NCBI RefSeq assembly: GCF_017355265.1 | Contig: NZ_JADIJQ010000010.1 | Location: 28,001 to 52,000 of the forward strand | Direction: 5' to 3' | Length of the DNA: 24,000 nucleotides | Source of the DNA: Tessaracoccus sp. SD287 | Lineage (GTDB): Bacteria > Actinomycetota > Actinomycetes > Propionibacteriales > Propionibacteriaceae | Shown here: in pieces, positions 1-13,782 of the stretch | How the letters are laid out: each line of letters opens with the position of its first letter | Position numbering within the stretch: position 1 is the first letter of the stretch | Made by a program: the position numbers and the translations under genes | Notes under the pieces: model-generated | Database searches by the model: none | The model's input: the letters and a program-made list of their open reading frames with translations, nothing else | Told to the model about the DNA's origin: nothing

Positions 1-2830
1 CGGTAAATGTGAGTTTCTCAAGGGTTCGCCGATCAAGGCGGTGGTAGTTGAGGATTGCCGAGAACCCGTCCTTCCGACCATCCCAGATATGCCACAGGAA
101 CGGTCGGTTGTCGAAGACCTTCACATGCTGGGCGAAAAACGAGTCGCGGAGCCAGTCCTCCAGCCGCCCGTTCTTGCCGCCGGCCTCGACGACAAGCCTT
201 CTCTCGGTAGCACTAGACCACTCCGCGCCATATGCAACTGCGAGTAGCTCCCGGAGTCGAGTCGTAAGATCCGACTCTCCCGGAAGCGCCTGCAAAGACG
301 CAATGCCGTCATGGTCAATGAACTGATCTAGTCCATCAGGCTCTTGAGCAGGCCAGTGATAACCCAGGAGGCGGGCGATTCCGACTTGAAGAGGATACGA
401 CGAGCCAAGAATGACCCCGTCAAAAAGCCATTCGGATGGTTCACGCGAGAATGGCTCCGGAAGGAACGCCACCGCGTCCCCTGCTGGCTGCCAGCGCTCT
501 GGATCGAACACAACTTTCCCGAGCGTTGCGTTCGTCACCTTGATCGAGTCATCGAGTTCGCGGACGTCCTCCGCAAAGTTCGGGCTCGAGCAATATGCCC
601 AAATAGCTTCCAGTGAGGATTCGTCCCTCGGAACCAGAACCGCAACGTTCTGGTCTGTCATGGCACCGGTCGACAGGGTGGCACGAAGCTCACTCATTAG
701 GTGCACGACGACACCAGGTCGGCCCCAGAGGTGTTGGCTGCGTATTTCTACGCCCGGGCGAACCTCGGGCTCAGTCATATCTCGAAACCGCAGCACGTCG
801 GAGCATCCTGAGTACAGACCTGGAACAGTCGGAGTTGACTGCAGACGCGCAAGATCGTCGGATAAGGCGGGATACTCCCAGTGTGCGCGGCGGTAGCGAG
901 GATCGTCCCCCGTGGTGTTTCCCTTGATGGGCTGGCAGTTGCCCTCCAGCAGCATTCCCGAAGTCAATCGAGACAGAGTAATTCGACTGTCTGGATTGGA
1001 GAGTTGTTCCGATTGACGTGGCCGTAATAGGTGGCCACTCGCAAGAGCTTCAGCTTTCGCTTCAACGCCAGTCGTACGGTGCGCCAACATGCCCATGATG
1101 GCATGGCTAGACTCGGCCCGCTCGCCACTAGCGATGGATAAACAGACTTTGACAACCTCGCCGGTAATCTGTCGGAATGCGCCACCACCCAGGCGAACAA
1201 TCGCGTCGATTCGCCGCTCTTTCAGAAGCTTTGTTCTGAATTTCTTGAAGGAAGTAAGCATGAGCCAGTTCTGAGGCGACACCGTCGCAACCGTTCCTGT
1301 TGCGCCCACGAATGACAGGCTTCGCTCGATGAAAGCGGTCGCGATATCGGCGCGCGCATCGGAGTGGTAACGGTCCAAATAGGCTTGCAGCTCGGCGTCC
1401 ATTGAAGCCCGCTTCAGGTAAGGCGGATTCGTGGCTACGAGCGTGTAGCGACGCGAAAGAAGCTCGGCCGAATTCACGATGTCTTGGGCCGCATTTCCGA
1501 GGACTGTCTGGTCAACCTTCTCCCCTCGAAAGGCGAGCGCGACAGCCCCTTGAACCGCGTCCCACGCGACCCCAACGCTTCCATCAGAACCGAATAGGGC
1601 ATCCTCCGAGTCGACTTCACGAGGCTGAATTAGCGACCCAAGAACATCCGCCTGCCCGAACAGGCCGTGCAGTCGCGAAAGCACCTTCCGCAGTTCACCG
1701 TCTTCTCCAGCGATCGCTTCCCAGTCGTTTCGGGACGCTCGAACGGGGACGCCGGTGCAGGCGATTCGCGGCGTGGGCAAGTTGCGGAATCCACCCTGCT
1801 TCCAGGCTTCGAGCGCGACGTTGAAGGTGGCGATCTGAGTACAGCGCGAGTCGAGTTCGAGACCGTGGAGATTGTCGCGGAGGACGGCATCTTGCGCCTC
1901 CGCCGGTGTGAGGCCCTCCTCTTCGGCACGCATGCGCCAGAGCATCCCAAACATTGCGACGAGAAAGTGACCGGAGCCACAGCACGGGTCCATCATCGTC
2001 ACATCGGCGGCGCGGTCGGGCCATTCGTTGAACGAGCCCGCCACAGGGGCGCCGTCTTCGGTACGGCGGAAGTACTCCCAGCCTGCGGTGAGCGAAGAGT
2101 CGGGATGACGTGCGGCCCACCATGCTCCGAGCGAGTTCTCCAACAGGAATCGAACCATATAGTTCTCGGTGAACAGCTGCGTGACGGGCGAGAGGTCGGC
2201 CCCGCCGATTTTGACGCCAGACTCGTTGACGCGCTTCTTCTCGGCCGTCTGCCAAAACTGATACACCCATCCGAGCGCATCCTCCGTCGTGAAGACCTCG
2301 GAAGGAATGTCGAGGAGGAGACGCTCCAGCGCGTCTCGGTGTTCGGCTGCGAACCGGACTTGTACCGCGGGGTCGGTGAGGCGGAACACGCCCGGCAGGA
2401 TCTCCGACGCGAACCGCGCGGCAACGGCCCAGGCGTCCGGCTCGCCAAGGTCAGACGCGAGATCGCCACAGTCTTCCAATGACAACGGGATATCGCGGTA
2501 ATCCGGATGCCGGAGCAGGCCATTGACTTCCAGGAAGCGCGCGAACAGCAAGCAATGCCACTGCTCGTAGGCGACATCGTGCACAAGGTTGGTAAGCGCT
2601 GCACCCGCTCGTGCATTGTCATCGCCGAGCTGCCGTGCCTTGTCGCGGAGCGCAAGCCGGAGTCTGTTCTGCTCGTCACTCAAGTAGCCCGGACGGCTCG
2701 GCTCTGCGACCGCGAGAGCGCGCAGGGCATCGTCGGCAGCGCGTTGTGCAGCGGCGCGGGCGCGCTGCGTTTGGGCGTCCAGAAAGCGTCGTTGGTCGGA
2801 GTTGAGGACTTTCGTCGTTTCCGTCGTCAT
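1..2830 (-). CDS. pglX: BREX type 1 N6-adenine DNA methyltransferase PglX (N-terminal ~943 codons; 3' end lies beyond the left edge)
   Basis: Absent from the ORF track because there is no stop in the window. My manual minus-strand translation from ATG 2830-2828 stays open to nt 2 (MTTETTKVLNSDQRRFLDAQTQRARAAAQ...). It has SAM-binding motif I DPCCGSGHF (nt 1964-1990) and catalytic motif IV NPPY (nt 1418-1429). A later segment, FFAQHVKVFDNRPFLWHIW, is typical of PglX. The start lies 1 nt after the brxC stop, which is the expected BREX-1 gene order. Confidence 0.9.
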   Translation of the reverse strand, partial: MTTETTKVLNSDQRRFLDAQTQRARAAAQRAADDALRALAVAEPSRPGYLSDEQNRLRLALRDKARQLGDDNARAGAALTNLVHDVAYEQWHCLLFARFLEVNGLLRHPDYRDIPLSLEDCGDLASDLGEPDAWAVAARFASEILPGVFRLTDPAVQVRFAAEHRDALERLLLDIPSEVFTTEDALGWVYQFWQTAEKKRVNESGVKIGGADLSPVTQLFTENYMVRFLLENSLGAWWAARHPDSSLTAGWEYFRRTEDGAPVAGSFNEWPDRAADVTMMDPCCGSGHFLVAMFGMLWRMRAEEEGLTPAEAQDAVLRDNLHGLELDSRCTQIATFNVALEAWKQGGFRNLPTPRIACTGVPVRASRNDWEAIAGEDGELRKVLSRLHGLFGQADVLGSLIQPREVDSEDALFGSDGSVGVAWDAVQGAVALAFRGEKVDQTVLGNAAQDIVNSAELLSRRYTLVATNPPYLKRASMDAELQAYLDRYHSDARADIATAFIERSLSFVGATGTVATVSPQNWLMLTSFKKFRTKLLKERRIDAIVRLGGGAFRQITGEVVKVCLSIASGERAESSHAIMGMLAHRTTGVEAKAEALASGHLLRPRQSEQLSNPDSRITLSRLTSGMLLEGNCQPIKGNTTGDDPRYRRAHWEYPALSDDLARLQSTPTVPGLYSGCSDVLRFRDMTEPEVRPGVEIRSQHLWGRPGVVVHLMSELRATLSTGAMTDQNVAVLVPRDESSLEAIWAYCSSPNFAEDVRELDDSIKVTNATLGKVVFDPERWQPAGDAVAFLPEPFSREPSEWLFDGVILGSSYPLQVGIARLLGYHWPAQEPDGLDQFIDHDGIASLQALPGESDLTTRLRELLAVAYGAEWSSATERRLVVEAGGKNGRLEDWLRDSFFAQHVKVFDNRPFLWHIWDGRKDGFSAILNYHRLDRRTLEKLTFT

Positions 2831-2831
2831 G

Positions 2832-5800
2832 TCAGCCCTTCACCATCACAGTGTCGCTACCGCTGTTCAGGGCGTCGAGAAGCTGCGTCCGAAGGGCCTC
2901 GATATAGCGCTCAACCTCGTCGGCACTGCTCAGGTTCGCCGTCGCGACCCTCACCGTGGTCATCTTCGCCGCAGGTGTTGTGAGCTGAATAGCCGCTTCC
3001 AGCACCCGCGAGGCCCGCTGCGGGATGGCGTCGAGTTCAGCGGTCCATCCCTGGAGCGGTCGAGCCTGCGCCGCCTTCAGCACGGCTGCCGCATCTGCAA
3101 GGTTGGGGGCCGCCTCGGTGCCGAGATGATGTTCCATGAGGAGAGCCTCGCGCTTCGCATCGTCGAGAGCCGTCCATGCTGGCTGCTGTTCGAGGCCTGC
3201 TACAGCCGTTGCGCGGGCGTCGCGCAGCGCAACGGCTGCTTCGTGGATGGCATCGCGGAGGGCCTCCGCGAGTTCCTTGACGATCGGGGCGACTGGATCG
3301 GCGTCGGCGAGGAGATCGCGGCTCGCGGCCAGCGCGTCGAGCCGTCCACGGGCCGCCGACGCGGGCTCCAGCCCCGTGGTCGCGGATGCAAGCGAATGCG
3401 CCAGTTCGAGCGAAGGCGTGCGGCTCTTGAATCTGCGTTCCAGGTCTCCGAGTTGGTCGTTGAAGCTCGTGAGGTCACTCTTCGCTGCCAGCAGGGCGTG
3501 CACGCGGTCGTTGCCAGACGCACTCACGATCACCTGGATGTTGCCTGGCACGGTGATGTCAGGGAGCGGAGCAGGCCCACTCACGCCCCTCGCGCGGTCG
3601 ACGAGCGACTTGACGGCCTGTTCGACAGCCGACACGAGTCGGTCGTTGTCGGTCGGGAAGCCGAGGTTGCTCAGCACTTGGCGTGCCTGGATTTTCTCGG
3701 CGGGCTTGAGCACAGTGACCTCGCGGCGGAGTTGCACGTTGCCGAGGCGGGTCTGCTTGAGTACATCTGCCGTGGTCGCGTCACTACCGTTGAGCGTCGC
3801 GCGGATCACGCCGGTGTCGAGGAGCACGCCGAGCGAGGCCATGAGCGCGTCGCGCGGCCAGCCGAGCGGCTTCGATGTCACGGCCTTCTCGACGTCACTC
3901 GCGGACGTGCCTGCCGGGCCGACGTGGCTGAGAATTTCTTTGACAACGGGATGCTGCTCAGGGTCGGCATCGAACTGGAGGGCCTTCAGCGCATCGGCTG
4001 CCGACCCGTTCTTCACTCGATCCCTAACCACCGACCACCGGGTGTCGTCAGCTTCGGAGAACCGTGGGAACAGGCGGGTCGCGGCGGACTGTGCGCCGGC
4101 CTCGATGTGTTCGCGCAGTGAGAGCCCGTTCGGAGCTGTACCGCCCCCGAGGAGCACGTTCGCCTTGGAGATCACGTCACGGACATGGGCATTCGCCTGG
4201 TCCGTCGCGCGGTTGAGGCGGGTTTGCATCGCGCTTCGTGCCTGCTTGCCCTCGTCGTCCTGCGGGATTCCCTGCTGGTCGATCACGCGCTGCGCAGCGA
4301 TCCTGTTGCGGACCGCTGCCGCGAACGCCGGAGCCTGGACACGAGGAAGGTGGATGAGGACGATCGGCGACTCGATGCCGAGGCTGCGCGCGGCCTCGTC
4401 GAACTGCTTCGCCGTGATTCCCTCGTCCCACTCCGAGCGGAGCCAGACCGGGATCGCATCGGAGGCCGGCGGGAGCGAGGCGTCGGCGTGCAGCGCAAGC
4501 TTGCGCGATTCCTTGGCGTGACCCTGCTGGATCGTCGCGGGCAGAGCCCGGTTGACCTCCGCTAGCAACAGCGAGTCGCGCTCCGTGCTCACCTCGCTGT
4601 CGGTCACCTGCGCGTGGTGCCTGCGCAGTGCCTCGTCCCACTCACGACCGGCCTTCGTCTGAAGACGGAACTCTTCGCCGTCCTGCTGGAGTATGCCCTC
4701 TTCGGCGAGTTCTTGGAGCGCTGCGGGGACTTGCTGCCGGAGCCGGTCGCCGTCGTGGGCGAGGTCCTCGACGAGCAGATCCACGAGATGGTCTGCCGAG
4801 GTGCGGACACCGATGTCGCCGTGACCCGATGTCGGGAGCAGACCGATGAGGTGGATGAGCCCGAGAATGCGGCCGCGCAGAGTGTCCTTCTGCCCCTGCT
4901 CGTGGATGAGTGTCTGCGTCTCCTTGAGGAGCAAACCCGCGCCGTTGAGGTCTTCGTTCTTTTGGGAGTAAAGGAAGTCCGATCCAACGACAGTGCCCAC
5001 CGACTCGGGGGCGACTCTGCGGTTCGCCTCGTGCACGATGCGAAGCTGGGAGCGCAACTGACCAGCGCGGCCGGCATCGGCCTGGCGAAGCACACTCTCC
5101 CAGAACCGACGGCGTACCGGGAGCAGCGGGTAGTCCTCAGCGAGGTCCTTGTCATCCACCGCGGTGTGCTGAATCTTGCTGCCGATGAGTTGGCGGGAAA
5201 TCTGCCCGGCGACCGAAGAGAGCGTACTGTCAAGCCCGGGCTTCTTGGCGGGCTCCTTGCTCAGCAGCACGCGGCGGACGACGGCATCGACGTCCTGGTT
5301 CTTGAGTACGACCTTGACGGTGAAGCGGTCCTGGATCTTCTGGAGCGTGGAATCGGCCGTCAGCTCCTGCTGGCCGGTGGCGACGAGTAGCACCCGACCG
5401 TTGAGTTCGCGCGACACCGACTCGACGAGGTTCTGCACCTCCATCGCCCGGCCGCCGTCGCCGCTGATGTACTGCTGCACCTCGTCGAGGACGATCAGCG
5501 ACGGCGGGAGCTGGCCATCACCTACGTACTCAAGGATCTTCTTGAGCAGCGCGATCGTCTCGTCGGTGGAGAACGAGCGGGTGTCCGGTGGGAACTGGTT
5601 GCGGAGCGCAGCGCGCACGTCCTTGGCCGATGCCGCAAACTCCGGATCGGAGGCGAGAATGGCATTCGCCAACAGTGTGCTGAGGTTGTACTCGGCGAGT
5701 TCCTCGTTGAGGTCGCCTCCATTGGCCGTGACATGCTCACGGACCGTGTCGAGGTGCCCGTTGCCTGCGAGCCATAGCGCCACTTGGGCGGGCGCAACGC

Positions 5801-6290
5801 GGGTGGGCAGTCCAGCCGCGCCGAGGACGATCGAGAGGAATACTGAGTTGAGCGTGTCGCCGCTGCGATCAAGTGCACCTGCCGCTGCCCACGGTGCGGC
5901 ACTATCCCGACGGCCGAGCGTTGTCAGTTCCGTCAACTGGTCCTGGATGCCCTGCGGAATATTGGTCAGTCCCCGGGCGGTCGCACCGTTCGGGAACTTC
6001 GTGTCGGCCCACAGGTGCTGAAGCACGCGAACAAGGTGAGACTTGCCGCTGCCGTAGAAGCCTGAGACCCACACCGCGGGCTGCGTCGTCCGGTTCCGAT
6101 GACCAGTGTACGAGTCGAGGATGCGCTGCAGACCGTGCTCGTACTCGCCCTCGCACACGAAGCTCTGCAGCTCGTACTTGAGGACGTCCCACTGGTTGGA
6201 GTCCTCGGGACGGTCGACATTGGTCACGCCGTCGTTCGGAATCTCAAAGCTCAGCGGATGCCGGATGAACAGGTCGTTGTTGATCGTCAC
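2832..6290 (-). CDS. brxC: BREX ATPase BrxC/PglY (1152 aa, P-loop NTPase)
   Basis: Length is typical for BrxC. Walker A GFYGSGKSH lies at aa 77-85 (nt 6036-6062), and a Walker B-like LIVLDEVQQY follows downstream. It sits between brxB and pglX, and its ATG overlaps the brxB stop (ATGA at 6287-6290). Confidence 0.93.
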   Translation of the reverse strand: MTINNDLFIRHPLSFEIPNDGVTNVDRPEDSNQWDVLKYELQSFVCEGEYEHGLQRILDSYTGHRNRTTQPAVWVSGFYGSGKSHLVRVLQHLWADTKFPNGATARGLTNIPQGIQDQLTELTTLGRRDSAAPWAAAGALDRSGDTLNSVFLSIVLGAAGLPTRVAPAQVALWLAGNGHLDTVREHVTANGGDLNEELAEYNLSTLLANAILASDPEFAASAKDVRAALRNQFPPDTRSFSTDETIALLKKILEYVGDGQLPPSLIVLDEVQQYISGDGGRAMEVQNLVESVSRELNGRVLLVATGQQELTADSTLQKIQDRFTVKVVLKNQDVDAVVRRVLLSKEPAKKPGLDSTLSSVAGQISRQLIGSKIQHTAVDDKDLAEDYPLLPVRRRFWESVLRQADAGRAGQLRSQLRIVHEANRRVAPESVGTVVGSDFLYSQKNEDLNGAGLLLKETQTLIHEQGQKDTLRGRILGLIHLIGLLPTSGHGDIGVRTSADHLVDLLVEDLAHDGDRLRQQVPAALQELAEEGILQQDGEEFRLQTKAGREWDEALRRHHAQVTDSEVSTERDSLLLAEVNRALPATIQQGHAKESRKLALHADASLPPASDAIPVWLRSEWDEGITAKQFDEAARSLGIESPIVLIHLPRVQAPAFAAAVRNRIAAQRVIDQQGIPQDDEGKQARSAMQTRLNRATDQANAHVRDVISKANVLLGGGTAPNGLSLREHIEAGAQSAATRLFPRFSEADDTRWSVVRDRVKNGSAADALKALQFDADPEQHPVVKEILSHVGPAGTSASDVEKAVTSKPLGWPRDALMASLGVLLDTGVIRATLNGSDATTADVLKQTRLGNVQLRREVTVLKPAEKIQARQVLSNLGFPTDNDRLVSAVEQAVKSLVDRARGVSGPAPLPDITVPGNIQVIVSASGNDRVHALLAAKSDLTSFNDQLGDLERRFKSRTPSLELAHSLASATTGLEPASAARGRLDALAASRDLLADADPVAPIVKELAEALRDAIHEAAVALRDARATAVAGLEQQPAWTALDDAKREALLMEHHLGTEAAPNLADAAAVLKAAQARPLQGWTAELDAIPQRASRVLEAAIQLTTPAAKMTTVRVATANLSSADEVERYIEALRTQLLDALNSGSDTVMVKG

Positions 6291-6844
6291 GCGAGGTCCT
6301 TCTGCGGGTCGATGACGCGGGCGCGGTAATTGAATCCGTCGCGCGCGTCGAGTAAGCGGAATGAATGAGTCTCCGGGTCGTGAAGCCCGGGGAAAAGCAC
6401 GAGGAGGCGGCCAGTCACGGCTGAATCGACGGACTTGATCACGCTCGACGCTCGCAGGAACGGGAAGATTGAGCCGATACCGACGAGCGTCACGACTGCG
6501 TTCGCGGGAGCCGCTTCGAGGGCTTCGCGAATGCGGGTGACCAGCGTCGTCTCGAACTGGTCGAGAATCGATTGCGTCAAGTCGCTAGGCTCCTCGTAGA
6601 ACGCCTCAGCGTGACGGTGCGACGACAGCCAGCGTCCGAAGTCATCAGTGACGTCGATGACCACCCAGCCGCGGCTCGCTTGGGCAGTCGCCAACTCCAT
6701 GCTCGGGAGCGCGTGGCGGATCTGGCGTTCAAGGTCCGGTGGGTAGACGAGCATCCACACCCGCTCCCCACCTGAGACGGTGTCCTTCCAGGTCAGGGAT
6801 AACTCGGCCTTATAGGCGTTAATGAGATCGGAGACGCGGCTCAT
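6287..6844 (-). CDS. brxB: BREX protein BrxB (DUF1788 family), 185 aa
   Basis: The listed ORF 6287..6979 is trimmed to the internal ATG at 6844-6842 (MSRVSDLINAYKAEL...), which overlaps the brxA stop as ATGA (6841-6844). The upstream 45 codons are Arg/Pro-rich and overlap brxA. The C-terminal RLLVLFPG...FRLLDARDGFNYRA pattern and the operon position fit BrxB. Confidence 0.88.
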   Translation of the reverse strand: MSRVSDLINAYKAELSLTWKDTVSGGERVWMLVYPPDLERQIRHALPSMELATAQASRGWVVIDVTDDFGRWLSSHRHAEAFYEEPSDLTQSILDQFETTLVTRIREALEAAPANAVVTLVGIGSIFPFLRASSVIKSVDSAVTGRLLVLFPGLHDPETHSFRLLDARDGFNYRARVIDPQKDLA

Positions 6845-7596
6845 GCGCCACCCCCGAAGGCTGGGAACGCTACGTCCACGACATTGCCCGCCACGAGCAG
6901 GTCGAGGAGTCCTTGGGTGTGCGCAGCGCGCAATGCCTCCAAGGAGCGGCCGGGTGCGAGCCCGAGGATCTGCGTCCACGGGTTGTCAAGGACACCAAGG
7001 CCCCGGCCGCCAGCGAGGTGTCCTAGGTACGCCGCATATGCGATAGCCACCGGACGTGCTTCCACATCGGTACGAACCTTCTTCGCGCGCCCTGCCAGAT
7101 GGCCGGTCTGGGTCCAGCAGGCGCCCGTGTTGCGACCGGTCTTGCCGAGCGTCGACTCGGACATCTCGCTGCCGAATTGTGCGGCCACGGCAGTGGTTAG
7201 GTCTGCCGATGTCACGCTTGAACCCGCAGGCAGTGCGGCAATCGCGGCGAATGAAGCACGGAGCACCTCGTCGCGGGTGAAGGCCAGTTGTCCCGCCAAG
7301 AGCGGGCGTGACGAGGGGTCGATTTCCCAGAAGTACCGCAGCGCCGCGAACTCCGGGCGCTGCGGGTCGAGAAAGTAGAGTTCGCGCAGGTGACGGAACG
7401 AGCGCTGCCTACCGGCCTGGGTTGGTCGGCCCAGAATATTGCCGTCGACTACCGCCTCGCGGTACTGCTCGGCGGGCGCATCAGCCGGCACCTCGCGCAA
7501 AAGCTCCACCAGGTGGGGAATGCCGATCGTGTGGCTGGCGGTCGTCCGCAACGTTCCGAGGGTGAAATCGCTCTCAACAGCTTGGGGGCTCGTCAT
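6841..7596 (-). CDS. brxA: BREX protein BrxA (DUF1819 family), 251 aa
   Basis: The listed ORF 6841..7707 is trimmed to ATG 7596-7594 (MTSPQAVESDF...). This start is preceded on the minus strand by GGGAGGAGG, a strong Shine-Dalgarno. It is the first gene of the cassette and has a DUF1819-like sequence (VVDGNILGRPTQAGRQRSFRHLRELYFL). Confidence 0.85.
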   Translation of the reverse strand: MTSPQAVESDFTLGTLRTTASHTIGIPHLVELLREVPADAPAEQYREAVVDGNILGRPTQAGRQRSFRHLRELYFLDPQRPEFAALRYFWEIDPSSRPLLAGQLAFTRDEVLRASFAAIAALPAGSSVTSADLTTAVAAQFGSEMSESTLGKTGRNTGACWTQTGHLAGRAKKVRTDVEARPVAIAYAAYLGHLAGGRGLGVLDNPWTQILGLAPGRSLEALRAAHTQGLLDLLVAGNVVDVAFPAFGGGA

Positions 7597-7911
7597 TTCT
7601 CGGTTGGCCTCCTCCCGACACGCACATCTGTCCACCTCGTCCACATCGCTGCACTTCGACTCTGCTCCGCCATGGACTCCGTCGAGAAACAAGTTCACCT
7701 GAGGCACGGTGGCCTGATCGTATCTCGCCCCTCTGGTGCCGATGCAAGTGCCACGCTGATTGCCTGGGTGGTGGGCCGCTCCTCGTGCTCACCCAGGGAC
7801 ACGAACCCGACCAGTCGGGCAACATCTCCGCCTTCTGGTTGTGGTCGCAACGACCGTCCTGGCCGTTGCCTCTCGTAGGCGAAGGGTCAGTCGTCGATGA
7901 TATTTTTTGTG

Positions 7912-8460
7912 ATGTATCCGGACTGGACTGTTGTAGGTCCTCGTGTATACGCCTCACGGGCGCACAGTTCGAGCGCGTGCTCGAATACTCAGAGTTGTCG
8001 GTGCCGTGATCTGCGACGACGAGTTTGCCGGCCTGTTGGCGCTGGAGAAGCCCATCCGGGAAATTCTGCGCGAGATCAAGATCAACCACGACCAGACGTG
8101 AACTCTTCGCCGCGCTGCTTGTCGTGTTCCCGACCCGCTATGGAACAGGGATGAGTCACGACGCTGTCACAGCACGCCTCACGCTCCACATGGTCAGCGC
8201 GACCGCAGCCTGCCCGATCCTCACCGGAAAGAGAGTCATTGCCCACGTCCTGGGGCACACCGCAGTCATGCGGCTGCTCAACGCCAGGATCGACAACACC
8301 GTCATCCCGCTCTTGGGCAAGACCACTCAGGCCTACCTCCACGCCATATCAAGACCAAGGAAGACGCCCTCGCACGGACACCACCCACCGGCGCCCATGC
8401 CGGGCGCTACACCGTCACTGACGACACCCTCCGGGCCAGGCCTTCCTCGACGGCCCTGAT
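7912..8460 (+). pseudogene. 5'-truncated, frameshifted tyrosine recombinase (phage-integrase family) remnant
   Basis: Piecing frames together gives IRTGLL*VLVYTPHG... (in-frame TAG at 7934-7936). Next comes PIREILREIKINHDQT*, then ELFAALLVVFPTRYGTGMSHDAVTARL...KRVIAHVLGHTAVMRLLNARIDNTVIPLLGKTTQAYLHA. A shift near 8346 then gives IKTKEDALARTPPTGAHAGRYTVTDDTLRA. This matches the catalytic C-terminal half of integrases (TGLR..., HxLRHTxAxxLLxAGxD, LGH...TTxxYLHA) with substitutions, a deletion and at least 3 frame changes. The N-terminal half is missing. Confidence 0.6.
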
Positions 8461-8517
8461 CATGCCGACATCCCAGCTGCCTCATCCCACCCCACAACCG
8501 CCTCGAACTGCCCACAT

Positions 8518-8555
8518 CGGCATAACCAGGACGTCGTCACAGCAGGGTTATGCCG
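8518..8555. repeat. Perfect 10-bp inverted repeat (CGGCATAACC ... GGTTATGCCG) with an 18-nt spacer
   Basis: Read directly: 8518-8527 cggcataacc and 8546-8555 ggttatgccg are exact reverse complements. The repeat sits exactly between the integrase remnant and the ISL3 remnant. Its function is unknown. Confidence 0.7.
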
Positions 8556-8559
8556 GGCT

Positions 8560-9085
8560 CGGCATCATCCGTTCCAACGTCGGGGCCCTGGTCGCGGACA
8601 AGGCCACCCGCTGAGAGCAACGCGTCCAGCAGGAACGCTGGGCCACCGCGGCCGCTCCGATGACCCGATCTTCCGCGTCGCCCGCACGCGCGCCAGCCTC
8701 ACCGACAACCAGCAGCACCGCTTGGCGAAGGTCCTGGCCGATGAGCGCCATGTCGCCTTCGAGGTCACCTGGAGCGTCTACCAGGACGTCATCGACGCCT
8801 ACCAAGCCACCGAACCGGCCGAGGGGAGACGATCATGACAAGGCTGATCACCAGCCTCCGGAGCGGGTCCCGGCAGGCCTGGAGGAGCTGCGCTCGCTCG
8901 GGCAGACCCTGAAGAGGCGCCGCGAGGACACCCTTGCGTTCTTCGACCCTCCCGGCAGCTCGAACGGGCCCACCGAAGCCATCCACGGATTGCTTGAACA
9001 CCTGCGAGGCACCGCCGAAGGGTTCCGCAATACCGTCAACTACATCGCCAGACGCCTACTCGACGCGGGCGGTTCCGACCCCTGA
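8560..9085 (+). pseudogene. ISL3-family transposase remnant (C-terminal ~170 codons only, multiple frameshifts and one in-frame stop)
   Basis: The fragments read HPFQ / VGALVADKATR*EQRVQQE / TLGHRGRSDDPIFRVARTRASLTDNQQHRLAKVLADERHVAFEVTWSVYQDVIDAYQ / MTRLITSLRSG / VPAGLEELRSLGQTLKRRREDTLAFFDPPGSSNGPTEAIHGLLEHLRGTAEGFRNTVNYIARRLLDAGGSDP*. This follows the conserved ISL3 C-terminus (DPFHVV...RVQQETLGHRGRKxDPLY...TNGPTEAxNGRLEHLRGxALGFRNLxNYIARSLLExGGF). All three reading frames are used across 8560-9085. Confidence 0.75.
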
Positions 9086-9222
9086 TCCATCGCCTTCTGT
9101 GATGAGCCACTTGAACAGGGTAGATGGGCCCATGTGGGTACGCGGATCATGACCAAGAGCGGAGTGCCCACGACTGCTCGCCATGTAGGCTCGATCCAAT
9201 ACGGTATTAGAGGGAGGCATTT

Positions 9223-11754
9223 GTGGTTCGAGCGGAGAACGGGACCCTCGCAGGTGTTCTGGAGGGCAAGAAGCAGTACCAGGTTCCGCTCTACCAACGC
9301 GTGTACTCGTGGGGCAAGAAGCAGCTCGGTCAGCTCTGGTCAGACATTGTCGAGCTCGAGCGCACCCTTGCCGAGGACCCGAAGGCCTCGCACTTCATCG
9401 GCTCCCTCGTTCTGGCAAGCAGCCCTGACTTCGGGGCCATCGGTGTCAACAAGTTCCTTGTCGTCGACGGTCAACAGCGCCTGACCACCCTCACACTCCT
9501 GCTAGCGGCGCTCCGGGATCACTTGATCGAGACCGGGGAAGCCGAACGGGCGAACGGCATCGACGCTCAATATTTGATCAATGTCTTTGACAACGGAAAG
9601 CCGCTCAAGGTCATGCCGACTCAGACAGATCGACCTGCCTACAAGGCGGTGCTCAACCGCACGCCCCAGGCTGGTGGGGAAGACGCTGTTGGAGATGCGT
9701 ATCGGTTCTTCCGGTCGAAGATCGCCGCGAGCGACGATCCGGATGATCCGCATGACCTCGAGCTACTCGAGGCCGCCATCGTACGTGGTCTCGCGCTCGT
9801 TGTCGTCACAGCCGAGCCGTCCGACAACGCGCACCGCATCTTCGAGTCACTCAACAACACTGGTCTTCGTCTGACGCAGAGTGACTTGCTCAAGAACTAC
9901 TTATTCATGCGTCTTGGAGACCGCGCAGAGGCAGTCTATGACACCGTCTGGCTTCCCTTGGAGAAGAAGCTCGACGCTGAAAACCTTGAGTTGCTATTTT
10001 GGCTCGACCTAGCTCAGCGCGATGACCGTGCGAAACAGTCGGATACCTACATCGGACAGCAGCATCGGCTTGAGAGGCTCACGACTATCGATGAGTTGGA
10101 GGCTGAGGTGATTCGTATTGCCAAGCTGGGCGATGTGCTCGCGACGATTCTCAAGCCTGCGACGGAGCAAGACGTAGAGATAAGCCGCCGTCTCACCAGG
10201 ATCAGGGCTTGGGGATCCACGACTGCGTATCCGGTGGTCATGCGGATCCTCGACAGGCGCGCAGCGGGCACTGCTACCGATGATGAAGTTGTGCGTGCTC
10301 TCACGTACCTCGAGTCGTACTTCGTTCGGCGCGTCGTGATCGGACGCGCCACCGCAAATCTCAATCGCACACTCCTCCAGGCAGTTGGATCGATCAGTGA
10401 TGCGGATCATATTGACGTCGCACTGCGCGAATACCTCTCCCGCGGCCGCAAGTACTTCGCGACCGACGAACAGGTTCGCGAGGCCGCTCAGACGGTTGCC
10501 TTCTACTGGCAGGGGCGTGGAACGCAAAAGAAGCTCATACTCCAATGGCTCGAAGAAGCCTACCGAGCGAAGGAGATCGTCCACCTCGACCCCAAGCACC
10601 TGACAATCGAACACGTCCTGCCCCAAACGATGACCGACTCCGTGCGTGAGACGTTCGCGGAGGGTTTCGGCGCCGACGCCGACATCGCCTACGAACATGA
10701 GCGTGTCGTGCACACCCTCGGCAACCTCACCCTTAGCGGTTACAACAGCGAACTCAGCAACAAGCCATTCGTCGAGAAGCGTGAGCTGCTGGCCAAGAGT
10801 GGCGTGTCGATGAACCAGGCGATCGCTGCCCACGCCACGTGGGGAGTCTACGAAATCAACACCCGCAGCACTGAACTGGCAGAAAAAGTCATCGAACTGT
10901 GGCCAGGTCCGGACGAAAGCGTCATCGCTGTTGGCGACGAACCCTCTGCGCTCCGCAGCCAAGTCGCCGCGATCGTCGCCGAGATCCCGGCAGGGCGCTG
11001 GACTTCGTACGGCGAGGTCGCAATCGTGGCCGGCACCTGGGCCCAACCGTTGGCCGCAATTATCGCGAATTTCCCGATGACCAACGCGTGGAGAGTCCTA
11101 CAGATCGGCGGGACGATCTCGGCTGGTTTCCGGTGGAGCGAGCCCGGCCGCACCGATGACCCGCGAGTGGTCCTCGAGGGTGAGGGACTCGTGTTCGATG
11201 CACAAGGTCACGCTAATCCTGAACAGTACATCCGAGCGGAAGAACTTGCGGAAGCCGCTGGTCTTGACCTCGATCCGGAGGCGATAGGTGCGCGCCGCAG
11301 CAAGACCACGCCTAGACTCAGGCCCGCAAGGCGCATGTCTGTGAAGGATGCCCAGCTTGAATTCTTCGAGCGGGTACGGGGCTATGGCAAAGTGCATGCG
11401 ACCAACATCACTACTTGGCGCAAGCCCTTCCCTCAACACTGGTATGACGTGAGCCTCGGAGACTCTCGTGGGCAGATCTCCCTACAGGTAAATTCCCAGA
11501 AGAAGCTTGTCACCGCTCTCTTCTGGATTCACAACGACAAGGACCTTTACGGGAAGTTGCTCGCCCAGCGTGACGTCATAGAAGCAGAGCTTGGCTTCGT
11601 CCTCCAGTGGGATGATAAACCTGACCGCAAGGCGTCCAAGCTCGTCGTCTCTCGTTCCGGCGATTTCCTAGAAGCGGGCCAATCGCAAGAACTTGTCCAC
11701 TGGCTCGTGACTATGGGCGACACATTTGCACGAGTCTTGCCCAAGTATCTGTGA
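9223..11754 (+). CDS. GmrSD/BrxU-like type IV (modification-dependent) restriction endonuclease with extra C-terminal modules: DUF262 + DUF1524 (His-Me finger) + MGMT/ATL-like DNA-binding domain + DUF4268-like domain; 843 aa
   Basis: GTG start at 9223 with AGGGAGG 6 nt upstream. DUF262 signature: YQRVYSW and DGQQRLTT (DGQQR at nt 9466-9480). DUF1524 signature: LTIEHVLPQ (aa ~460), HTLGNLTL (aa ~497), NSELSNKPF. Aa ~577-680 read IPAGRWTSYGEVAIVAG...PLAAIIANFPMTNAWRVLQ..G.ISAGF, resembling the MGMT DNA-binding fold with NAWRV in place of PCHRV. Aa ~707-843 (LEFFERV...LFWIHNDKDLYGKLLAQRDVIEAELGFVLQWDDKPDRKASKL) resemble DUF4268. The whole protein contains no cysteine. Confidence 0.88.
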   Translation: MVRAENGTLAGVLEGKKQYQVPLYQRVYSWGKKQLGQLWSDIVELERTLAEDPKASHFIGSLVLASSPDFGAIGVNKFLVVDGQQRLTTLTLLLAALRDHLIETGEAERANGIDAQYLINVFDNGKPLKVMPTQTDRPAYKAVLNRTPQAGGEDAVGDAYRFFRSKIAASDDPDDPHDLELLEAAIVRGLALVVVTAEPSDNAHRIFESLNNTGLRLTQSDLLKNYLFMRLGDRAEAVYDTVWLPLEKKLDAENLELLFWLDLAQRDDRAKQSDTYIGQQHRLERLTTIDELEAEVIRIAKLGDVLATILKPATEQDVEISRRLTRIRAWGSTTAYPVVMRILDRRAAGTATDDEVVRALTYLESYFVRRVVIGRATANLNRTLLQAVGSISDADHIDVALREYLSRGRKYFATDEQVREAAQTVAFYWQGRGTQKKLILQWLEEAYRAKEIVHLDPKHLTIEHVLPQTMTDSVRETFAEGFGADADIAYEHERVVHTLGNLTLSGYNSELSNKPFVEKRELLAKSGVSMNQAIAAHATWGVYEINTRSTELAEKVIELWPGPDESVIAVGDEPSALRSQVAAIVAEIPAGRWTSYGEVAIVAGTWAQPLAAIIANFPMTNAWRVLQIGGTISAGFRWSEPGRTDDPRVVLEGEGLVFDAQGHANPEQYIRAEELAEAAGLDLDPEAIGARRSKTTPRLRPARRMSVKDAQLEFFERVRGYGKVHATNITTWRKPFPQHWYDVSLGDSRGQISLQVNSQKKLVTALFWIHNDKDLYGKLLAQRDVIEAELGFVLQWDDKPDRKASKLVVSRSGDFLEAGQSQELVHWLVTMGDTFARVLPKYL

Positions 11755-11824
11755 CGACTCGCGCGGACTGTCGCGGTATTCATCGGATTCCGTGTGTCGA
11801 TGACAACTGACACTCCATGTGAAC

Positions 11825-12529
11825 CTACACACCCAGCGCGTTCCAACGCCCGGGCTCCTCGAGCTCCGCCATCCGCACCTCGACTTCGCCCTCCCCCACC
11901 GACGCCACACCGACCAACAGCGACAACGTCGGATAACCATGGACCCGGTTGTCACGGATGATCGCCCGGTCATCCAGCGGACCGACCTCCGTCGACCTGG
12001 CCAACACCGACAGCCAGTCGTCCCACCAGCGCCCGTCCGCATCCACATCAGTCGACGCAGCAGTGAACTCCCCCAGCCAGGCGGCAATCCGAGCGGTCGT
12101 CGGGTCGTCCACGTCGTCGTGGGCGACCATGTGCGTCCCGGGCGCCAACTCCACGACCCGAGGCACGCCACCATCCCACGAGGTGACCCGGGCACCCTCG
12201 GCGGTGACCTGCACCAGGTTGAACCCCAGCGTCGTCAGCGGATCGGGCAGCCGACGTCCCGCCACGGTGTCCAGCACCAGCGACCCGCGTGAGGTGAAGA
12301 CCGGCCCGTTCGTCCCCCCGCCACGGTTCAGCAGCACCGCCAGCGTCGAGTCGTCCGCCGCCATCCACGCCCCGCCGGCGAGTTCGTCCATGACCCCGTG
12401 CACCGCGGGCAGGTCCGGCCACCACGCACCCCAGGGACGCCACCGCCGCTGCGGGTCCTCGTCGCGGACGGCCAACATCCGGACCGGCCCGGTGCCCGGC
12501 TCGGGCACGCGAATCACGACGGTGCACAT
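11825..12529 (-). CDS. NRDE-family protein (TANGO2-like, former DUF833), 234 aa
   Basis: The N-terminus MCTVVIRV places Cys at position 2, as is typical for this family. The size fits, and there is an LLNRGGG-type segment. ATG at 12529-12527. The gene is divergent from coaBC across a 47-bp gap. Confidence 0.8.
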   Translation of the reverse strand: MCTVVIRVPEPGTGPVRMLAVRDEDPQRRWRPWGAWWPDLPAVHGVMDELAGGAWMAADDSTLAVLLNRGGGTNGPVFTSRGSLVLDTVAGRRLPDPLTTLGFNLVQVTAEGARVTSWDGGVPRVVELAPGTHMVAHDDVDDPTTARIAAWLGEFTAASTDVDADGRWWDDWLSVLARSTEVGPLDDRAIIRDNRVHGYPTLSLLVGVASVGEGEVEVRMAELEEPGRWNALGV

Positions 12530-12576
12530 GGACAGGCAGGTTACCGGTCCGAGCCGGCGGTGCGAGAATCTGACCC

Positions 12577-13782
12577 ATGGTCATCGTCGTTGGTGTCACG
12601 GGCGGTATCGCCGCCTACAAGGCCGTCCACCTGGTCCGGCTGTTCATCGGAGACGGCCACGAGGTGCACGTCGTCCCGACCGAGGACGCGCTGCGCTTCG
12701 TGGGGCGGCCCACGTGGGAGGCGATCTCGCGGAACCCGGTCACCACGTCGGTGCACGACGACGTCCCGCAGGTCCGCCACGTTGCGCTGGGCCAGCGGGC
12801 CGACCTGGTGGTGGTGGCCCCGGCCACGGCGAACACCATCGCCGCCATGGCCGCCGGACTGGCCGGCGACCTGCTCGGGACGACGCTGCTGGCCACCACC
12901 GCCCCCATCCTGATCGCGCCGGCCATGCACACCGAGATGTGGAACCACCATGCCACCCGCGCGAACATGGCGACCCTGCGATCCCGCGGCGTCCACGTCA
13001 TCGGCCCCGACGACGGGCCGCTCACTGGTGGCGACTCCGGTCCCGGACGGATGAGCGAGCCAGAGGCCATCCACGAAGCCGCGCTCGCCATCATCAACGC
13101 CCGCCATGACCTGGCCGGACTCACCATTGCCGTGTCCGCGGGCGGCACCCGCGAGCCCATCGACCCCGTCCGTTACCTGGGCAACCGCTCCAGCGGCCGC
13201 CAGGGCGTGGCGCTCGCGGTCGCGGCCGCCGAGCGGGGCGCCAGGGTGCTGCTGGCCGCCGCCACCATCGACGGCGACATCCTGCGCGACGCCCAACGAC
13301 CCGGCATCCACATCGCCACCGTGGGTTCAGCGGCGGACCTGTCGATCGTCATGCGCCAGGCGGCCGAGCAGGCGGACGTCATCATCATGGCCGCCGCCGT
13401 CGCCGACTACCGGGTGGCCGAGATGTCCCAGGACAAGCTGACCAAGGAGGACGGCACGCCGCCCACCCTCACCCTGGTCGAGAACGAGGACATCGTCGCC
13501 GGTCTGGCCGTGCGTCGGCGCCCCGGCCAGACCATCGTCGCCTTCGCCGCCGAGACCGCCACCGGCGACGAACTGCTCGAGCGTGGACGACGCAAGCGAC
13601 GCCGCAAGGGTGTCGATCTGCTGGCCGTGAACGAGGTTGGCTGGGACAAGGGTTTCGAGACCCCCGACAACCGGCTCACCATCCTCGACGCCACCGACGA
13701 GGTCGTGGCGCAGAGCGCCGGGACGAAGCGGCAGGTCGCCGATGCGCTGCTGGACGCCGTCCTGGACGCGCGTCGACACTGA
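12577..13782 (+). CDS. coaBC: Bifunctional phosphopantothenoylcysteine decarboxylase / phosphopantothenate-cysteine ligase (CoaBC/Dfp), 401 aa
   Basis: N-terminal flavoprotein motif VGVTGGIAAYKA, then VAPATANTIAAMAAGLAGDLL and PAMHTEMW. The C-terminal CoaB half has VSAGGTREPIDPVRYLGNRSSGRQG and AAAVADYR. Length is typical. Confidence 0.95.
   Translation: MVIVVGVTGGIAAYKAVHLVRLFIGDGHEVHVVPTEDALRFVGRPTWEAISRNPVTTSVHDDVPQVRHVALGQRADLVVVAPATANTIAAMAAGLAGDLLGTTLLATTAPILIAPAMHTEMWNHHATRANMATLRSRGVHVIGPDDGPLTGGDSGPGRMSEPEAIHEAALAIINARHDLAGLTIAVSAGGTREPIDPVRYLGNRSSGRQGVALAVAAAERGARVLLAAATIDGDILRDAQRPGIHIATVGSAADLSIVMRQAAEQADVIIMAAAVADYRVAEMSQDKLTKEDGTPPTLTLVENEDIVAGLAVRRRPGQTIVAFAAETATGDELLERGRRKRRRKGVDLLAVNEVGWDKGFETPDNRLTILDATDEVVAQSAGTKRQVADALLDAVLDARRH

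Follow-up and report, generated by a model that had tools for sequence, protein, structure and literature searches.

A GmrSD-family Type IV restriction endonuclease of Tessaracoccus sp. SD287 with C-terminal alkyltransferase-like and DUF4268 domains

Architecture of the protein

A single-chain Type IV restriction endonuclease of the GmrSD family is encoded within the 24,000-nucleotide stretch of Tessaracoccus sp. SD287 DNA analysed here (contig NZ_JADIJQ010000010.1, positions 28,001 to 52,000; hereafter the window), with its nuclease core followed by two accessory domains, namely an alkyltransferase-like (ATL) domain with a remodelled pocket and a DUF4268 domain. The domain assignments and a role in defence are close to certain. 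On the evidence of sequences and models, the balance tips slightly towards a DNA-targeting or reader function of the accessory module within the enzyme, and for the ATL-like domain taken by itself a reader role is about evenly poised.

The gene (ORF 9223..11754 on the plus strand, with a GTG start) encodes a protein of 843 amino acids (aa), the domains of which are arranged from the N- to the C-terminus as GmrSD_N (aa 11-228), GmrSD_C (aa 414-554), ATL-like (aa ~577-692) and DUF4268 (aa 711-842; see Table 1). Full-length homologues, 115 in number and sharing 57-99% identity, were collected and aligned, and with more than 100 such homologues over this range the gene is taken to be real. No model matching the 843-aa protein was found in NCBIfam. 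The PADLOC profiles Orf5, HEC-06, mREase_IV and SspE span aa 1-560 end to end, the top match being PDLC02693, named only 'Orf5', at aa 12-560 (E 7e-134). A preliminary description of this DNA, made from the sequence alone and concerned with 10951..11754 (aa 577-843 plus the stop codon), had proposed a four-module architecture in which a complete DUF262 and DUF1524 core precedes a C-terminal extension ending in a DUF4268-like tail. By Pfam, profile and model evidence, each of these elements was found where that description had placed it, with the GmrSD core ending at about aa 555-560 and the tail matching its Pfam family above the cut-off.

The core carries both features expected of GmrSD proteins, a DUF262 domain with the DGQQR motif and a DUF1524 His-Me finger with catalytic histidine and asparagines. 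The GmrSD_N motifs are VDGQQRLTTL (aa 80-89) and DNAxRIFESLN (aa 201-211), those of GmrSD_C are LTIEHVLPQ (H464) and HTxGNLTLxGYNSExSN (N501, N508 and N513), and the DUF262 and His-Me finger motifs are at least 97% conserved across 116 homologues. From this family membership, cutting of modified and not of unmodified DNA, stimulated by nucleoside triphosphate (NTP), is predicted. The closest solved relatives of the core are a DUF262 protein (9jfl_B, E 5e-15) and SspE (6jiv, E 1e-7), with no BrxU-named chain among the six PDB matches at E<=1e-3 when aa 1-561 were used as the query. Between the core and the accessory module lies a WPGPDE hinge, in which W560, P561, P563 and E565 are invariant, G562 is found in 115 of 116 homologues and position 564 is D or N.

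Fold and identity of the ATL-like domain

As judged from sequence and model comparisons, the ATL assignment is marginal for this single sequence and solid at the level of the family. Taken alone, the sequence gave a sub-threshold match to Pfam DNA_binding_1 (PF01035) at aa 578-638 (E 7e-5; 23 bits, the gathering score being 27), and a phmmer search of the PDB reached the ATL of Vibrio parahaemolyticus (2kif) at E 0.026 and Atl1 of S. pombe (3gva) at E 1.5. A profile of 26 sequences covering aa 566-692, here termed A1, matched 2kif at E 9.4e-7 over residues 7-95 of 108 and 3gva at E 1.1e-5 over nearly its full length, with active alkyltransferases attaining E 0.2-0.7 only. An AlphaFold2 model was built from A1 (predicted local distance difference test (pLDDT) score of 88.9, predicted template modelling score of 0.81), and its top 41 Foldseek matches in the PDB were all ATL proteins or O6-alkylguanine-DNA alkyltransferases (AGTs), led by 2kif (E 8e-4) and 3gva (E 4.5e-3) with template modelling (TM) scores of 0.64-0.68 on the target. 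PF01035 was also matched at E<=1e-3 by 56 of 66 more distant carriers of the domain, the best at 7e-13. As the family profile, the modelled structure and the PF01035 matches of relatives agree, the domain is placed beyond chance similarity. The earlier suggestion of an ATL or O6-methylguanine-DNA methyltransferase fold for aa ~577-680 was borne out by this structural comparison, and aa 577-690 lie nearer to ATLs than to active alkyltransferases by both profile and Foldseek.

Mean pairwise identity within the family amounts to 68% for the ATL-like domain, 70% for the nuclease, 45% for DUF4268 and 31% for the linker that follows the ATL-like domain; purifying selection on the ATL-like domain is as strong as that on the nuclease domain.

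A remodelled pocket

In ATL proteins the active-site cysteine of the PCHRV motif is replaced by tryptophan or alanine. The counterpart of this motif in the protein studied here is NAWRV, and not one cysteine is present in the whole 843-aa protein; the ATL region is likewise free of cysteine in 111 of 116 homologues. With no cysteine available, and with alanine at the cysteine position and tryptophan at the histidine position, alkyl transfer is excluded on sequence grounds, as the preliminary description had argued from the same NAWRV replacement; its gapless reading of the motif finds support in the residues of the wider clade. Of 148 domains taken to represent that clade, position 622 is alanine in 116, position 623 is histidine in 66, tryptophan in 48 and tyrosine in 28, and position 624 is arginine in 143, with the R-V of the motif invariant in close homologues. 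A gapped HMMER alignment placing W623 on the ATL tryptophan was rejected on account of the gapless alignment to SsOGT (4zyd) and of these frequencies at positions 622 and 623.

Residue equivalents were assigned from the alignments together with the numbering R128 of hAGT and Y25, R39 and W56 of Atl1. The equivalent of the base-flipping tyrosine, Y596, is present in 116 of 116 homologues and in 140 of the 148 representatives. F636 and W638 of the GFRW motif are likewise found in all 116 close homologues, and across the wider clade in 144 and 143 of the 148 domains, respectively. The position of the arginine finger, a residue at the start of the recognition helix which is highly conserved in AGTs and ATLs and important for their base flipping (PMC10779285), is occupied here by Gln608. 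This position is glutamine in 112 of 116 close homologues, and in the representatives it is most often valine (55), followed by glutamine (41), arginine (18) and methionine (9). The domain thus has the fold, the cysteine replacement and the conserved tyrosine of ATLs, and it lacks their arginine finger and their small stand-alone form; it also falls outside the active AGTs, having no cysteine and a tryptophan at the histidine position. By its sequence it is best described as a member of a distinct clade with a remodelled pocket from which the arginine finger has gone, and not as a canonical ATL.

Distribution of the ATL-like clade among Type IV systems

An exhaustive HMMER search with A1 against 1.84 billion representative proteins returned 1182 proteins at E<=1e-3 and 360 at E<=1e-10. 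GmrSD_C was present in 46 of 66 long proteins of the ATL-like clade by Pfam scan, and other layouts were found beside it. In P0197 and P0287 the ATL-like domain lies between Mrr_N and an AAA_5 domain of the McrB AAA+ type, in P0204 the ATL-like and AAA_5 layout occurs without an Mrr_N match, in P0201 Mrr_N and the ATL-like domain are joined to a HEPN-like domain, and in P0239 and P0291 GmrSD is combined with RAMA and the ATL-like domain. A gene for McrC (PF10117) directly follows McrB-like P0204 (loci L010 and L011) and P0197 (locus L029), with the contig of the third McrB-like homologue being too short to show any McrC. In McrB, DNA is recognised through the N-terminal part (PMC3424535). That the ATL-like domain occurs in this region of McrB homologues, and also on several Type IV frameworks unrelated to one another, argues more strongly than any other observation made here for a possible role as a DNA-targeting or reader module.

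DUF4268 was found in only 3 of the 66 long matches. A different C-terminal tail of ~150 aa was seen instead in 31 representative clusters among 155 sequences examined (carriers include P0163, P0181, P0186, P0188, P0193 and P0263), with the consensus ...ETSCFL...IWP..YP..G.VEVVFQ.L..RPPFDD..LR.ELR.RLN...GIDLP.AKL.LRPSFP.... This tail has no match in Pfam or in the PDB, and the idea that it is a divergent DUF4268 was rejected as hhalign gave a probability of <1% in both runs. Because most relatives with GmrSD and ATL-like domains carry this other tail, the two accessory domains are not an obligate pair. A scan of genome contigs with the C-terminal 284 aa recovered 16 loci; it relied on exact peptide patterns and is hence no census.

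Some further observations were made at these loci. At L010 a MmeI-type methyltransferase and a SNF2 helicase are encoded upstream of the McrB-like gene. At L029 a stand-alone 285-aa DUF4268 protein is encoded at 10009..10866 (-), 2 kb downstream of mcrC and adjoining a gene for a TrwC relaxase, so that DUF4268 can also accompany the ATL-like domain from a gene of its own. For the McrB-like homologue P0287 (L028 12..2126) the precomputed annotation lists PF28530 (DUF8426), a match which the local Pfam scan did not report.

Proposed mode of action of the accessory module

Aa 1-560 form a complete enzyme core, with the DUF262 NTPase followed by the DUF1524 His-Me nuclease. It is proposed that the ATL-like domain would dock on DNA in the manner of AGTs and ATLs and inspect a nucleotide in its remodelled aromatic pocket. 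DUF4268 might provide a second contact with the DNA or with the modification, or might serve in dimerisation. Engagement with modified foreign DNA would then license the NTP-dependent nuclease to cut; modified DNA would thereby be told apart from unmodified DNA, possibly with flipping of the base and with a particular modification being read.

Several points weigh against this proposal. Neither this protein nor most of its clade has the arginine finger. The preliminary description had taken the domain for an ATL-type base-flipping module, and of this the ATL fold was retained; flipping in the manner of ATLs is not established, because the arginine finger is replaced by Gln608, and the sequence leaves room for a domain that may not flip bases at all. 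Most relatives with GmrSD and ATL-like domains are without DUF4268 and have the different tail. BrxU and Eco94GmrSD select modified cytosines without any accessory domain (PMC12409352), and as these enzymes lack such domains, the accessory module is not required for modification dependence in the GmrSD family. The Foldseek E-values are modest for both models (8e-4 for the ATL-like domain and 7e-4 for DUF4268).

Some of the same facts are drawn upon by the suggestion that the ATL-like domain is a generic clamp, i.e., a helix-turn-helix (HTH) anchor independent of sequence and of modification which would raise affinity or processivity, with sensing left to the GmrSD core as in BrxU. The lost arginine finger would suit such a clamp, as would the non-specific, minor-groove contacts made by the HTH of AGTs (PMC10779285) and the selection of modified cytosines by BrxU and Eco94GmrSD in the absence of accessory domains (PMC12409352). 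However, Y596, the aromatic residue at 623, R624, F636 and W638, which belong to the lining of the ATL lesion pocket or to its loop region, are nearly invariant across a large and diverse clade, which exceeds the constraint to be expected of a simple anchor, and the domain also stands in the N-terminal region of McrB homologues; a generic clamp is accordingly thought unlikely, though it deserves to be kept in view.

An extension of the proposed reader role is offered with a similar degree of doubt. The domain without the arginine finger, marked by NA[H/W/Y]RVL and GFRW, might constitute a previously unrecognised family of modified-base readers, which would have been recruited repeatedly by Type IV systems (GmrSD, McrBC and Mrr_N/RAMA proteins) and would read hypermodified purines such as 7-deazaguanine derivatives, 2-aminoadenine or N6-adducts. 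A purine target is proposed because the domain has its origin in a pocket for guanine lesions. The recognition of alkylated or bulky purines that was raised in the preliminary description is pure conjecture.

The DUF4268 tail

The C-terminal domain matches Pfam DUF4268 (PF14088) at aa 711-842 with E 1.2e-16 and 61.4 bits against a cut-off of 27, covering profile positions 2-139 of 140, and the PADLOC profile PDC-S11 of a candidate system matches aa 704-842 (E 3e-21). The AlphaFold2 model (pLDDT 94.1) consists of a helix, three strands, two helices, two strands and a long helix. Its best Foldseek match is ExsC (3kxy, E 7e-4), followed by YbjN (6vu7) and AmyR (5fr7), with other secretion chaperones (CesT, SchA and Spa15) further down the list; TM scores are about 0.45-0.54 and identities 8-13%. 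No viral structure was matched by the model at E<=1e-3, and a search of PDB sequences with the DUF4268 profile gave a chance match only (E 0.27).

The statement of the preliminary description that DUF4268 has no known function proved too strong, as leads exist and the domain occurs in nucleases which have been tested. MdgA and MdgB are DUF4268 nucleases that protect E. coli from T4 and not from the unmodified T4-GT7, purified MdgA degrades modified T4 DNA, and DUF4268 is suggested by the authors to be a motif for substrate recognition (bioRxiv 10.1101/2025.02.28.640651). DNA binding by DUF4268 has also been predicted by a sequence-based server (Jablonska et al., 2017; PMC5714182).

These leads allow DUF4268 to be viewed as the real modification reader, with the ATL-like domain reduced to a spacer or to a regulatory or autoinhibitory element. 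Besides being common to the modification-dependent MdgA and MdgB, predicted to bind DNA (PMC5714182) and present in the PADLOC candidate PDC-S11, DUF4268 changes more quickly than the other parts of the protein, which might be expected of a specificity element. Its fold, however, resembles dimeric protein-binding chaperones and YbjN and is unlike known nucleic-acid readers, most relatives with GmrSD and ATL-like domains do without it, and purifying selection acts strongly on the ATL-like domain; this assignment of roles is therefore considered quite unlikely. It is highly improbable that the module containing DUF4268 instead binds a phage protein (e.g., an anti-restriction factor) or gates the nuclease by oligomerisation. 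In favour of this idea are the structures that DUF4268 resembles most, namely dimeric chaperones that bind peptides (ExsC, CesT, SchA and Spa15) and YbjN/AmyR, its fast divergence, and the targeting of GmrSD enzymes by phage inhibitors such as IPI* (PMC12409352). Against it, the likeness is at the level of the fold only (TM about 0.5, 8-13% identity), no conserved partner gene lies beside the homologues and the conserved ATL-like domain would be left unexplained.

Genomic context

Table 1. Features of the window, and of homologue loci where a locus is named, with coordinates and strand.
Feature	Coordinates	Strand	Description
Whole gene	9223..11754	+	Type IV restriction endonuclease of the GmrSD family, single-chain, with a C-terminal pair of accessory domains
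Shine-Dalgarno-like GGGAGG	9212..9217	+	5 nt upstream of the GTG start; read from the sequence
GmrSD_N/DUF262, aa 11-228	9253..9906	+	ParB-like NTPase domain; Pfam E 9.6e-36, full profile coverage
GmrSD_C/DUF1524, aa 414-554	10462..10884	+	His-Me finger nuclease domain; Pfam E 5.3e-23, profile positions 3-137/138
WPGPDE hinge, aa 560-565	10900..10917	+	Joins nuclease core to accessory module
ATL-like domain, aa 577-692	10951..11298	+	AGT C-terminal-domain fold with HTH, no Cys, two extra C-terminal helices
Gln608	11044..11046	+	Arginine-finger position of AGT/ATL (HMMER alignments to 2kif, 3gva and 4zyd)
NAWRV, aa 621-625	11083..11097	+	Counterpart of PCHRV, with Ala622 for Cys and Trp623 for His
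GFRW, aa 635-638	11125..11136	+	Clade-specific motif in the loop matching the ATL lesion-binding loop
DUF4268 domain, aa 707-843	11341..11751	+	Fold of the order alpha-beta3-alpha2-beta2-alpha, similar to that of type III secretion chaperones and YbjN
pglX	2..2839	-	PADLOC PglX E=0; 946-codon open frame running off the window start
brxC	2832..6290	-	PADLOC E=0
brxB	6287..6979	-	PADLOC 5e-49; Pfam BrxB
brxA	6841..7707	-	PADLOC 4e-66
ISL3-family transposase, C-terminal remnant	8660..9085	+	Pfam DDE_Tnp_ISL3 E 1.4e-10, profile positions 181-239/240
TANGO2-like gene	11825..12529	-	First gene on the high-GC side
coaBC	12577..13782	+	High-GC side
ATL-McrB homologues	L010 6001..9364; L011 3854..7217; L029 5001..7982		(Mrr_N +) ATL-like + AAA_5 + McrB_lid, then McrC

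Next to the nuclease gene, divergent from it and 1.5 kb from its start, lies a set of type 1 BREX genes arranged as brxA-brxB-brxC-pglX; pglZ and brxL would lie beyond the start of the window. Truncation of this set after brxC was considered and rejected when the PglX frame (2839..2, -) was found. The intervening stretch (7710..9220) is poor in ORFs, with nothing recognisable beyond the final ~60 residues of an ISL3-family transposase, and looks like a decayed insertion sequence (IS). In GC content the window ranges from 58 to 67% over its first 12 kb or so and from 70 to 72% thereafter. The step, from ~60% to ~72%, falls just downstream of the nuclease gene, and the region of ~11800-12600 has the appearance of the right-hand border of a low-GC island acquired by horizontal transfer. 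No tRNA gene was found in the window, and there were no notable promoter or terminator features near the nuclease gene.

The neighbourhoods of six homologues on long contigs were examined within 10 kb, and defence or mobile-element genes were found in five of the six. Type I restriction-modification (R-M) genes lie directly downstream at L004, which also has SRA_ScoMcrA, NERD and NUDIX genes, and at L005, which also has an integrase and a TrwC relaxase. The neighbours are a PLD-helicase with DUF3427 at L003, UvrD helicases and a DUF4011/MTES helicase at L008, and SMODS (CBASS), GmrSD_N+HNH, EcoRI methylase, SIR2 and PDDEXK genes at L009. The sixth locus (L001) carries a HigBA-like toxin-antitoxin pair and an IS110 element. 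The defence-island context is therefore evident both from the BREX genes next door and from the R-M and other defence genes beside homologues. No conserved partner gene was seen beside the six homologues, so that the protein is taken as a stand-alone system.

This context also bears on the idea of a repair enzyme, in which the ATL-like domain would find alkylated guanines of the host and the fused nuclease would incise alongside, as in the archaeal ATL-EndoV and AGT-EndoV. Although fusions of ATLs to nucleases are known in a repair context (PMC10779285) and ATLs bind O6-alkylguanine without repairing it, such a function is scarcely credible given a core of the GmrSD/HEC-06 type, neighbours that are BREX, R-M, CBASS, SIR2 and mobile elements and not repair genes, a location in a low-GC island, a distribution that is patchy, an arginine finger that has been lost and the fusion of the same clade to McrB with McrC.

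Two features of the homologue set should also be mentioned. N-terminal extensions of 28-164 residues are annotated in some homologues, namely P0011 and P0024 (1007 aa) and P0014 and P0018 (871 aa), and these are probably differing start-codon calls and not added domains. Homologue P0021, 84% identical, is recorded from 'Burkholderia sp. RS01', the other close relatives being all Micrococcales; this record could be a contamination or a recent transfer.

Comparison with known systems

Eco94GmrSD and BrxU share the DUF262 and DUF1524 core, including the DGQQR and H...N...N motifs, and lack the C-terminal ATL-like and DUF4268 domains, whereas the protein described here has ~280 extra C-terminal residues. 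Sequence similarity to the solved members of this family is low. The gene brxU likewise adjoins BREX genes (PMC8565348), but the gene in the window is divergent from the BREX set, with the IS remnant between, and is not embedded in the operon; neither a close sequence relationship to BrxU nor its two-domain architecture was found. SspE has a homologous DUF262 N-terminal domain (PADLOC E 1e-25; PDB 6jiv E 1e-7) and senses phosphorothioate together with the SspABCD system, but ssp genes are absent here, and the two proteins have unrelated C-terminal parts.

With Atl1 (3gva), the V. parahaemolyticus ATL (2kif) and E. coli YbaZ the ATL-like domain shares the HTH, the flipping tyrosine and the R-V, as well as the absence of both the acceptor cysteine and the AGT N-terminal domain. 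It differs from them in Gln608, in the tryptophan at the histidine position and the alanine at the cysteine position, in the GFRW loop and in two extra helices. Moreover, ATLs are stand-alone proteins of ~110 aa that hand lesions over to nucleotide excision repair, whereas here the domain is fused to a nuclease. In the archaeal ATL-EndoV and AGT-EndoV a domain of the AGT C-terminal type is likewise joined to an endonuclease (PMC10779285), but these act in repair, their nuclease is EndoV and their lesion-binding residues are the canonical ones, and here the nuclease is of the GmrSD type and found in defence islands. The fusion of a modified-base reader to a nuclease or motor follows the same logic in McrBC, with its McrB-N domain, and in the SRA enzymes (the MspJI family and ScoMcrA); the putative reader fold here is, in contrast, the AGT C-terminal domain and not McrB-N, SRA or PUA-like, and flipping is only putative.

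MdgA, MdgB and PDC-S11 share DUF4268 and are modification-dependent defence nucleases, tested or predicted. MdgA has no conserved nuclease or accessory domains in common with PD-T4-3, and in the paper on MdgA and MdgB GmrSD appears only in the reference list and neither DUF262 nor an ATL-like domain is mentioned (bioRxiv 10.1101/2025.02.28.640651); these proteins are likened to the present one by description and not by sequence.

The combination of domains had not gone entirely unnoticed, as DUF4268 and PF01035 are listed as add-on domains of GmrSD homologues by Machnicka et al. (2015; PMC4619093), and public annotation already calls homologues "alkylated DNA nucleotide flippase Atl1" (JGI) or DUF4268 proteins. 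That paper was the only one found when the literature was searched for GmrSD, DUF262, DUF1524 or McrB together with ATL, PF01035 or methylguanine, and the searched literature contained no discussion of an ATL-type restriction reader, of the loss of the arginine finger or of the occurrence in McrB. The preliminary description, which knew of no characterised defence enzyme of this four-module architecture, was thus right that the enzyme is uncharacterised, but the architecture itself is not new to the literature. The protein is a real variant of the known GmrSD family and not a new category of system.

Significance

All characterised GmrSD enzymes target cytosine modifications (PMC12409352). Should the ATL-like domain prove to be only a DNA anchor, the protein would be an ordinary GmrSD variant. 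If the domain reads a particular modification, the known target range of Type IV enzymes would be extended, a possible explanation would be at hand for resistance of Actinomycetota to phages with hypermodified DNA, and a compact protein reagent for detecting the modification might be obtained. If the reading of purines holds true, these would be the first purine-directed GmrSD and McrBC enzymes. A subfamily with a dedicated, conserved domain derived from a base-flipping lesion binder offers a concrete route by which the specificity of GmrSD enzymes may be studied.

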